DNA of 21,819 nucleotides, taken from the IMG/VR virus record IMGVR_UViG_2728369393_000012; one strand, given 5' to 3'. This DNA is from a virus (Duplodnaviria; Heunggongvirae; Uroviricota; Caudoviricetes). Of this stretch, positions 4,511-6,320 are shown in pieces. Position numbers and translations under genes: made by a program. Below the pieces are notes generated by a model. It was not told where the DNA came from and did not search any database. It saw nothing but the letters and a program-made list of their open reading frames with translations. Each line of letters starts with the position of its first letter. Position 1 is the first letter of the stretch.

Positions 4511-4653
4511 TTATCCGCACCCAGTATCACCACCTGCGTGATTACCCTGTCCTGCTCCGGAATAATGCCCTATTCGCTTGTTCTCAGAAATTGCCAGCAA
4601 CCTTACACTACTTCTTTTGAGCCCATTTTTCGCCAGCCCTGAATACAGGAAAG
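4511..4653 (-). pseudogene. LuxR-family regulator gene, C-terminal (HTH) part, cut off from its 5' part by IS600 copy 2
   Basis: Joining 5921..6320 to 4653..4511 across the TGT duplication restores one ORF (...SEMRVNIKTVN/TFLYSGLAKNGLKRSSVRLLAIS...), a LuxR-type HTH signature. Confidence 0.55.
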
Positions 4654-4720
4654 TGTTGAGGTAGCCTGAGTTTAACGGACACTCCTTCCTGAAATAGAAT
4701 GGCATCAGAAGGAGCTAGTA

Positions 4721-5023
4721 ATGAGCAGAAAAACCCAACGTTACTCTAAAGAGTTCAAAGCCGAAGCTGTCAGAACGGTTCTTGAAAATCAACTTTCGAT
4801 CAGTGAAGGCGCTTCCCGATTATCTCTTCCTGAAGGCACTTTAGGACAATGGGTTACCGCCGCCAGAAAAGGGCTCGGTACTCCTGGTTCCCGCACGGTG
4901 GCTGAACTGGAATCTGAAATTCTGCAACTGCGTAAGGCGTTAAATGAAGCTCGCCTTGAGCGAGATATATTAAAAAAAGCAACAGCGTATTTTGCACAGG
5001 AGTCGCTGAAAAATACGCGTTAA
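4721..5023 (+). CDS. IS600 OrfA
   Basis: Identical protein to 3222..3524. Confidence 0.9.
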   Translation: MSRKTQRYSKEFKAEAVRTVLENQLSISEGASRLSLPEGTLGQWVTAARKGLGTPGSRTVAELESEILQLRKALNEARLERDILKKATAYFAQESLKNTR

Positions 5024-5058
5024 TCGAACAATGGCGACAACAATTTCCCATTGAAGCG

Positions 5059-5877
5059 ATGTGTCAGGTATTTGGTGTATCCAGGAGCGGTTATTACAAC
5101 TGGGTACAGCATGAACCCTCAGACAGAAAACAAAGTGATGAGCGGCTAAAACTGGAGATTAAGGTGGCACATATCCGCACTCGCGAAACATATGGAACCC
5201 GGCGGCTCCAGACGGAGCTGGCAGAGAATGGCATCATCGTTGGTCGTGACCGACTGGCACGTCTTCGTAAGGAGCTAAGGCTACGCTGTAAGCAGAAACG
5301 CAAGTTCAGAGCGACTACGAACTCGAACCACAATCTGCCAGTTGCGCCAAATCTGCTGAACCAGACGTTCGCTCCTACAGCACCAAATCAGGTCTGGGTG
5401 GCGGACCTGACGTATGTTGCCACACAGGAGGGATGGTTGTACCTCGCTGGCATCAAAGATGTTTATACGTGCGAAATTGTCGGCTACGCCATGGGAGAGC
5501 GCATGACAAAAGAGCTGACAGGTAAAGCCCTGTTTATGGCGCTCAGGAGCCAGCGCCCACCTGCCGGGCTAATCCACCACTCTGATCGAGGTTCACAGTA
5601 CTGCGCATACGATTACCGGGTCATACAGGAGCAGTTTGGTCTGAAAACATCAATGTCGCGTAAAGGTAACTGTTACGACAACGCTCCGATGGAAAGCTTC
5701 TGGGGAACGCTGAAAAATGAGAGCCTGAGCCACTATCGTTTTAATAACCGGGATGAAGCCATCTCAGTAATACGGGAATACATTGAGATTTTCTACAATC
5801 GTCAGCGTCGTCACTCTCGTCTGGGGAATATCTCCCCGGCAGCCTTCAGGGAAAAATATCATCAGATGGCTGCTTAA
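5059..5877 (+). CDS. IS600 OrfB (transposase, OrfAB by frameshift)
   Basis: Identical protein to 3560..4378. Confidence 0.9.
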   Translation: MCQVFGVSRSGYYNWVQHEPSDRKQSDERLKLEIKVAHIRTRETYGTRRLQTELAENGIIVGRDRLARLRKELRLRCKQKRKFRATTNSNHNLPVAPNLLNQTFAPTAPNQVWVADLTYVATQEGWLYLAGIKDVYTCEIVGYAMGERMTKELTGKALFMALRSQRPPAGLIHHSDRGSQYCAYDYRVIQEQFGLKTSMSRKGNCYDNAPMESFWGTLKNESLSHYRFNNRDEAISVIREYIEIFYNRQRRHSRLGNISPAAFREKYHQMAA

Positions 5878-5920
5878 AAAAAGAACAAATGGTAGTGTCC
5901 GCTATTGCCAGTACACCTCA

Positions 5921-6320
5921 TGTTAACTGTTTTTATGTTTACCCTCATCTCACTGGCGAGATGGGACGGACGCAACTGACGGTAGATATATCCAAACATC
6001 ACCACCATCTCTGACATCGTCAGTGCCCGTGCTTTTTTGTTCCAGGTCCACAATCTGTTACGCACAGCATTATGTATATCATGTCCCCCTTTCAACGCTT
6101 CCAGATCCAGCTGAATAAAACGGCGTCCCTGAAACATGCTGCGCATTAAATGGCCCAACTGACTATCACAGATTATTAACCAGGATTCTTTACTATCCAG
6201 AATAACCCTGCGATTTTCCGGCATAAAAAATTCTTGAGCCAGAATTACACGGCATCCTTTCAGTAACAAACGCAAACCATATTCCAGATAATAATTACGC
6301 GTCGCAAGAATGAGCTTCAT
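5921..6320 (-). pseudogene. LuxR-family regulator gene, N-terminal (receiver-like) part, interrupted by IS600 copy 2
   Basis: ORF 5874..6320 reads into the IS right end; the native frame continues at 4653 once the IS and TGT duplication are removed. Confidence 0.55.

Follow-up and report, generated by a model that had tools for sequence, protein, structure and literature searches.

A prophage cargo gene interrupted by IS600 in a degraded lambdoid prophage probably encoded an orphan NarL/FixJ-like regulator

Regulators of the NarL/FixJ type (RcsB, EvgA, NarL) are ~200–215 amino acids (aa) long and are recognised by a (beta-alpha)5 receiver with an acidic pair, an acceptor Asp, a Thr/Ser and a conserved Lys, by a cognate kinase and by a GerE-type helix-turn-helix (HTH). 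Closer in size to the protein discussed here are GadE and DctR/YhiF (175–176 aa), small atypical LuxR-family regulators of Escherichia coli in which a non-phosphorylated N-terminal domain is fused to a LuxR HTH. Its own family includes ORF-156 of the P-Eib prophages, and we found no literature on ORF-156 or its relatives in full-text searches and two Eib papers. Other regulators are encoded, like the gene described here, in effector-carrying prophage cargo regions; in enterohaemorrhagic E. coli (EHEC), PsrA/PsrB and PatE are AraC/XylS-type proteins with another DNA-binding fold, and Pch is merely named as a regulator family (PMC10877973). Here, we describe a gene interrupted by the insertion sequence (IS) IS600 in IMG/VR record IMGVR_UViG_2728369393_000012, a stretch of 21,819 nt from a virus of the Caudoviricetes (hereafter, the window). 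The gene probably encoded an orphan regulator with a divergent GerE/LuxR-type HTH.

Three copies of IS600, each 1264 bp long, lie in the window, and all have an intact orfA and orfB, of 100 and 272 aa. A single base distinguishes copy 2, which lies within the gene, from copies 1 and 3, which have the same sequence. Deletion of positions 4654–5920, which removes copy 2 and one TGT of its target-site duplication, joins 6320..5921 to 4653..4511 on the minus strand. The resulting open reading frame (ORF) of 543 nt encodes 180 aa and ends in a stop codon at 4511–4513. A preliminary description of the locus had reported a rejoined ORF of about 181 aa, a count that includes the stop, and the peptide it quoted (NIKTVNTFLYSGLAKNGLKRSS) is found in the rejoined protein. 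The empty site was found in E. coli 97-3250 (locus L001), where window positions 4423–4653 and 5921–6560 align to 4770–5640 over 871 bp with no mismatches or gaps, and where the identical 180-aa ORF occupies 4858–5400. About 115 complete genomes, including O55:H7 CB9615, O121 strains and 97-3250, carry the gene at ≥99% identity over 495 nt. It is also present at 100% identity in four complete Stx1a-converting phages and at 99.4% in phage 2B8. As the uninterrupted site exists at 100% identity in other genomes and phages, both halves belong to one gene. This confirms what the preliminary description had observed and supplies the intact orthologues that it proposed to look for.

The interrupting elements agree with IS600 (IS3 family) in size (~1.26 kb), in their TG...CA imperfect inverted repeats (TGAGGTAGCC... 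at one end and ...ACACCTCA at the other), in the 3-bp duplication and in the arrangement of orfA and orfB with a programmed frameshift. The NCBI Prokaryotic Genome Annotation Pipeline (PGAP) names the same element in strain CFSAN004176 an 'IS3-like element IS600 family transposase'. Copy 2 entered after nucleotide 400 of the gene, within codon T134. By the alignment to GerE this is 3–4 residues into the recognition helix, which spans residues 129–142 in the predicted model described below. The right junction of copy 2 was found in one of 5,426 complete genomes (CFSAN004176) and the left junction in none of them. CFSAN004176 is 100% identical to the window on both sides of a missing segment of 415 bp (window 4422–4836), which has no counterpart in its sequence (NZ_CP014583.1; locus L003 around 6000/6001). 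This segment comprises the 235-bp spacer with the gene's 3' segment and the first 180 bp of IS600 copy 2, and its absence reflects either an IS-adjacent deletion or an assembly error. The rarity of the junctions and the match of CFSAN004176 show that the insertion into the gene is a recent, lineage-restricted event.

The rejoined protein belongs to a small family. It matches phrog_6585, a profile whose function label is unknown, over its full length (E = 1e-91, residues 1–155 against 156 profile positions). ORF-156A, C, D and E (orf-156A/C/D/E) from the P-Eib prophages of E. coli ECOR-9 belong to the same family, with 60–69% identity over ~155 residues. Among 5.8 billion proteins searched, 39 homologues were found. 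None of them carries a Pfam domain, those with a protein name are called 'hypothetical', and E. coli is the source of every one whose source is named. An exhaustive hidden Markov model (HMM) search of 1.84 billion representatives gave only 37 family matches, and the named cluster members that we examined were all from E. coli. The conserved core spans ~155–158 residues, whereas the C-terminal tails vary. Pairwise ratios of nonsynonymous to synonymous substitution (dN/dS) among seven paralogues were 0.14–0.32, with dS near or at saturation. This indicates a real protein-coding family under purifying selection.

The N-terminal ~90 residues are predicted to form a shortened, four-stranded receiver-like domain. 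D52, at the acceptor position at the end of strand 3, is the sole invariant residue of the receiver set. T7 and N9 stand in place of the acidic pair, and the Thr/Ser, the conserved Lys and the fifth strand-helix unit are missing. No kinase gene adjoins the gene in the window or its relatives in the loci that we examined; the BtsS/BtsR pair in four of these (L004–L007) is host DNA past the prophage end. The receiver and the cognate kinase that characterise the NarL/FixJ regulators are thus not found here. Given established receiver chemistry, the missing residues point to a pseudo-receiver that would not be phosphorylated in the canonical way.

The C-terminal domain appears to be a divergent GerE/LuxR-type HTH, judged from family-level and predicted-structure evidence. 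A profile enlarged with distant members from the exhaustive search of representatives (A3) matched GerE (1fse) at E = 1.8e-4 and a DNA-binding response regulator (6jqs) at E = 1.9e-3. The alignment of A3 to GerE is in the correct register, including the K-T-V of the recognition helix (...KTVNTFLY... against ...KTVRNHIS...). Compared with PF00196, for which the cut-off is 23.5 bits, the distant members P0069, P0044 and P0045 scored 28.4, 22.2 and 19.7 bits, and P0045 also scored 27.7 on the related Sigma70_r4_2 model. These three proteins match the family profile at 2.4e-4 (P0069), 4.2e-36 (P0044) and 5.9e-32 (P0045). An AlphaFold2 model of P0001, which is 99% identical to the window protein, has a predicted local distance difference test (pLDDT) score of ~90 for residues 1–150 and disorder from residue 156. 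This predicted model contains a C-terminal four-helix bundle with an HTH formed by helices 2 and 3, and 37 of its top 38 Foldseek hits in the PDB are full-length NarL/FixJ-type regulators. A fold search of BFVD returned generic response-regulator hits only. The predicted likeness to the NarL/FixJ regulators and GerE thus consists of an N-terminal alpha/beta domain followed by a four-helix GerE-type HTH. The family core is shorter (~157 aa), and its receiver has four strands and lacks the acidic pair, Thr/Ser, Lys and adjacent kinase of those regulators. The likeness to GadE and DctR is one of concept only: a weak N-terminal alignment to GadE is in the same register, and hhalign scored GadE at E = 0.083 (probability 0.7%) and DctR at E = 0.52, so that kinship with either was rejected. 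Identity with Psr or PatE was also rejected, as these are of the AraC type (PMC10877973) whereas the fold here is GerE-type. Domain scans of the window protein and its close relatives gave no significant AraC-family match, and no homology to PsrA/PsrB, PatE or Pch was seen.

Taken together, we consider it likely that the locus represents a cargo ('moron') gene that a lambdoid prophage carries in its right arm and that IS600 has inactivated. Its product would be the ~157-residue core protein of the ORF-156/phrog_6585 family, with the C-terminal ~55 residues forming the divergent four-helix HTH. Expressed from the cargo region of the prophage, it would most likely have served as an orphan DNA-binding transcription factor of a NarL/FixJ-like kind that did not depend on phosphorylation. 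The analysis shows the IS insertion with its target-site duplication, the empty site, membership of the family, purifying selection and similarity at the level of the fold; that the protein binds DNA, that it has a regulatory role and that its function was lost are what we infer. As the insertion lies in codon 134, within the predicted recognition helix, the interrupted allele is almost certainly null. Judging from the model, the 148-aa truncated product that can still be read lacks most of the recognition helix and helix 4 and should not bind DNA. The preliminary description had proposed a regulator for lysogenic conversion that has since been inactivated, and this interpretation is upheld in part.

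Several results weigh against this reading, the first of them concerning the HTH. The preliminary description had held that a reconstructed protein with no significant GerE/LuxR match would contradict the assignment, and formally this is what the single sequence gave. A Pfam scan of the 180-aa protein found no family at E ≤ 10, the NCBIfam EvgA match was non-significant (E = 0.14; residues 90–159 against EvgA 134–201), and the protein falls under every curated HMM threshold. GerE was hit by one of 28 close relatives, at E = 0.056. A profile built from the close E. coli members alone also had GerE as its top PDB hit, at merely E = 0.18. The structural evidence is a predicted model from a shallow 28-sequence alignment, and Foldseek found no PDB hit at E ≤ 1e-3, with TM-scores of 0.3–0.4. 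Homology to GerE is therefore seen at the profile level and, transitively, at the family level, but not as a direct HMM match of the protein itself; the LuxR-type HTH claimed by the preliminary description is supported by the family profile, the distant members and the predicted fold. In addition, a promoter scan of the minus strand upstream of the gene found no consensus sigma-70 site.

The remaining points against this reading concern the state of the gene, and they would fit the view that decay had made it a pseudogene by the time IS600 inserted, so that nothing functional was lost by the insertion. We regard this as unlikely. The last ~19 codons (4514–4569; residues ~162–180) are a tail-fibre 3' fragment read in the wrong frame, but comparison with the 156–157-aa paralogues shows that no part of the family core (residues 1–~158) is missing. 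As the tail is non-native and lies beyond this core, where disorder is predicted, the intact allele holds the whole conserved protein. At the intact locus (L001 and L002), PGAP calls no 180-aa ORF and annotates merely a 150-bp 'partial hypothetical' pseudogene (5155–5304 in both), which covers residues 33–82. Most of this stretch is shared with the 182-bp remnant left in O157:H7 and O111 genomes, and the call may be an artefact, caused by a reference protein that itself derives from a fragment. The remnant (nucleotides 62–243, 94.5% identity) matches phrog_2014 and is the best match in 251 genome records, with O157:H7 and O111 among those listed. Fragmented copies also occur in many Stx2a phages, and the surrounding prophage is heavily degraded. 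Set against this decay, the 180-aa ORF is kept at 99–100% in the ~115 genomes and in complete Stx1a phages, and selection on the paralogues is purifying. As a separate observation, direct repeats of the 3' end of the tail-fibre C-terminal gene (4443–4569 and 6556–6682, 91% identity) flank the regulator cassette, which suggests that the cassette was acquired when two prophages whose tail-fibre ends are related recombined with each other. This arrangement is also present in 97-3250 and in Stx1a phages, so it is older than the IS insertions.

Less likely still is an HTH like that of sigma-70 region 4, which would contact RNA polymerase or an anti-sigma-type partner instead of binding an operator in the classical LuxR manner. 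Cross-hits to sigma region 4 are to be expected, as its HTH and that of GerE come from one superfamily. The best sequence and structure matches are to GerE, NarL and RcsB, and the two-domain layout is that of full-length NarL-type regulators. That the two halves come from different genes and fall in frame by chance after in-silico removal of the IS has virtually no probability left, as it is already refuted by the contiguous IS-free ORF and by homologues that cover both halves.

Table 1. Features of the interrupted gene, the IS600 copies and adjoining elements in the window
Feature	Position	Strand	Remarks
5' segment of the gene: codons 1–133 and first base of codon 134	5921..6320	-	100% identical to L001 5001–5400; predicted product: pseudo-receiver domain, HTH helices 1–2 and start of helix 3
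3' segment of the gene: rest of codon 134 to codon 180 and stop	4511..4653	-	100% identical to L001 4858–5000; predicted product: remainder of recognition helix, helix 4 and non-native tail
Present ORF, 148 aa (133 native and 15 IS-derived residues, MRCTGNSGHYHLFFF)	5874..6320	-	Reads into the IS600 right end
Putative GerE-type HTH, residues 100–133: helix 1, helix 2, first residues of recognition helix	5921..6023	-	
Residues 134–155: rest of predicted recognition helix and helix 4	4589..4653	-	Parted from the 5' part by the IS
IS600 copy 2	4657..5920	+	1264 bp, TG...CA ends; orfA 4721–5023, orfB 5059–5877
Left TGT of the 3-bp target-site duplication of copy 2	4654..4656		Single TGT at the empty site in L001
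Right TGT of the 3-bp target-site duplication of copy 2	5921..5923		
IS600 copy 1	3158..4421	+	Flanked by imperfect GTC/TTC duplication
IS600 copy 3	17873..19136	-	Flanked by TAC/TAC duplication
Duplicated 3' fragment of tail-fibre C-terminal gene	4443..4569	-	91% identical to 6556–6682; partial tail-fibre pseudogene in L001 (PGAP)
Terminator-like hairpin (GC stem, then UUUUU) between tail-fibre C-terminal gene and regulator gene	6501..6528	-	-16.5 kcal/mol, z-score -2.8

The paralogues show where genes of this family usually reside. Most lie 82–88 bp downstream of an Eib/YadA-anchor adhesin gene, in prophages, on one plasmid and on the chromosome. This spacing is constant behind the Eib/YadA-anchor trimeric autotransporter genes of loci L004–L007, L008, L010–L015 and L025. 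The Eib-linked paralogues have a terminator hairpin just upstream, followed by ~25 bp to the start codon. This leaves little space for a promoter of their own and suggests that they are expressed by read-through. The 180-bp leader of the window gene is not conserved with the Eib-linked genes in an upstream alignment with the paralogues. Other members reside in four different settings. One adjoins the junction of a type VI secretion system (T6SS) and kps, and another a Ca-binding repeat protein. A third belongs to a plasmid-like region; on a second contig, a perC gene is close by. In the fourth setting (L026), the distant member P0045 (160 aa, 2195–2677) is followed after 21 bp by a 169-aa protein (2699–3208) with a clear Pfam GerE domain (E = 1.4e-13), to which the family profile aligns at E = 2e-4. 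Here, two small E. coli proteins that resemble LuxR are encoded in tandem. The family is thus a mobile cargo gene that tends to accompany surface or virulence genes.

Compared with ORF-156 of the P-Eib prophages, the window protein has the same two-domain core, and both genes lie in a lambdoid prophage cargo region downstream of tail-fibre genes. Unlike the ORF-156 genes, which follow the eib/YadA-anchor gene at the spacing given above, the window allele has no adhesin gene upstream. It is instead followed by nleG and espJ, carries a non-native tail of ~19–22 residues and is interrupted by IS600.

The window covers a whole lambdoid prophage in a degraded state, flanked by ybhB and ybhC and next to the bio genes and the lambda attachment site. 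From ybhB, the gene order is espJ, a hypothetical gene, nleG, IS600 copy 1, a tail-fibre fragment and the interrupted regulator gene. The terminator-like hairpin, a frameshifted tail-fibre C-terminal gene, an ORF fusing lysozyme and tail-fibre sequence, holin and Q come next, and the prophage ends with the remains of ninG, bet and exo, another IS3-family element, IS600 copy 3, xis and int before ybhC. The same cargo module, in the order tail fibre, regulator, fibre fragment, nleG, hypothetical gene, espJ and attR, also occurs in strain 97-3250, at torT, and in the complete Stx1a phage LC744182, where it occupies the right end.

Decay is visible throughout the prophage. IS600 copy 1 is located 235 bp downstream of what is left of the regulator gene and, inserted 43 bp (3115–3157) ahead of the start codon of nleG (2533–3114, minus strand), severs the effector gene from its original upstream sequence. 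The 216-aa ORF in the program-made ORF list that starts within the end of copy 1 is an artefact. IS600 copy 3 lies in codons 1–2 of a lambda-type xis (...GCGATGTA|IS|GTACTTGACACTT, encoding M-Y-L-T-L; flanks 17860–17872 and 19137–19160) and cuts the start codon off from the codons that follow. Nevertheless, PGAP annotates an 'excisionase' here from a GTG inside the IS end (MSVKLRLPQ followed by YLTLQEW...). This insertion probably helps to lock the prophage in place. In the 512-aa fusion ORF (6812–8350, minus strand), residues 34–67 match the N-terminus of a phage lysozyme, and a complete collagen-repeat tail fibre (phage_tail_N, Collagen, Phage_fiber_C) begins at residue 76. One deletion running from the lysis gene into the tail-fibre gene thus seems to account for the loss of the entire region for head and tail morphogenesis. 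The tail-fibre C-terminal gene (6542–6811, minus strand) has an internal stop and a frameshift (...VRVR*HDD...), and is intact in 97-3250 as a 133-aa ORF (L001 5622–6023). A fourth insertion sequence in the early region (14909–16112, minus strand) is a different IS3-family element with orfA and orfB. Lastly, the hypothetical gene between espJ and nleG (1647–2362, minus strand) is split into two ORFs here and in CFSAN004176, and forms a single ORF of 232 aa with no Pfam match in 97-3250 (L001 3248–3946).

The IS600 insertion belongs to the ordinary decay of a dead prophage, in which the type III secretion system (T3SS) effector genes espJ and nleG are still present, and does not reveal a new kind of system. 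The gain for annotation is modest: a family known as 'hypothetical' ever since the P-Eib phage records gains a reading as a predicted atypical LuxR/NarL-like DNA-binding protein. A bolder reading, which we put forward tentatively and hold to be doubtful, is that the family consists of unrecognised, E. coli-restricted pseudo-receiver LuxR-type regulators that move as a unit with their cargo and control cargo or host virulence genes in cis or in trans. This cargo, carried on prophages and plasmids, may be Eib-type trimeric autotransporter adhesins or the effectors NleG and EspJ; the IS600-disrupted allele would then make the strains that have it natural knock-outs. The family adjoins Eib adhesin genes and, on Stx1a-type phages, T3SS effector genes. 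If it regulates these neighbours, a prophage-borne class of regulators would be added to virulence control in Shiga toxin-producing and enteropathogenic E. coli, and strains with intact and IS600-disrupted alleles would provide ready pairs for comparison.
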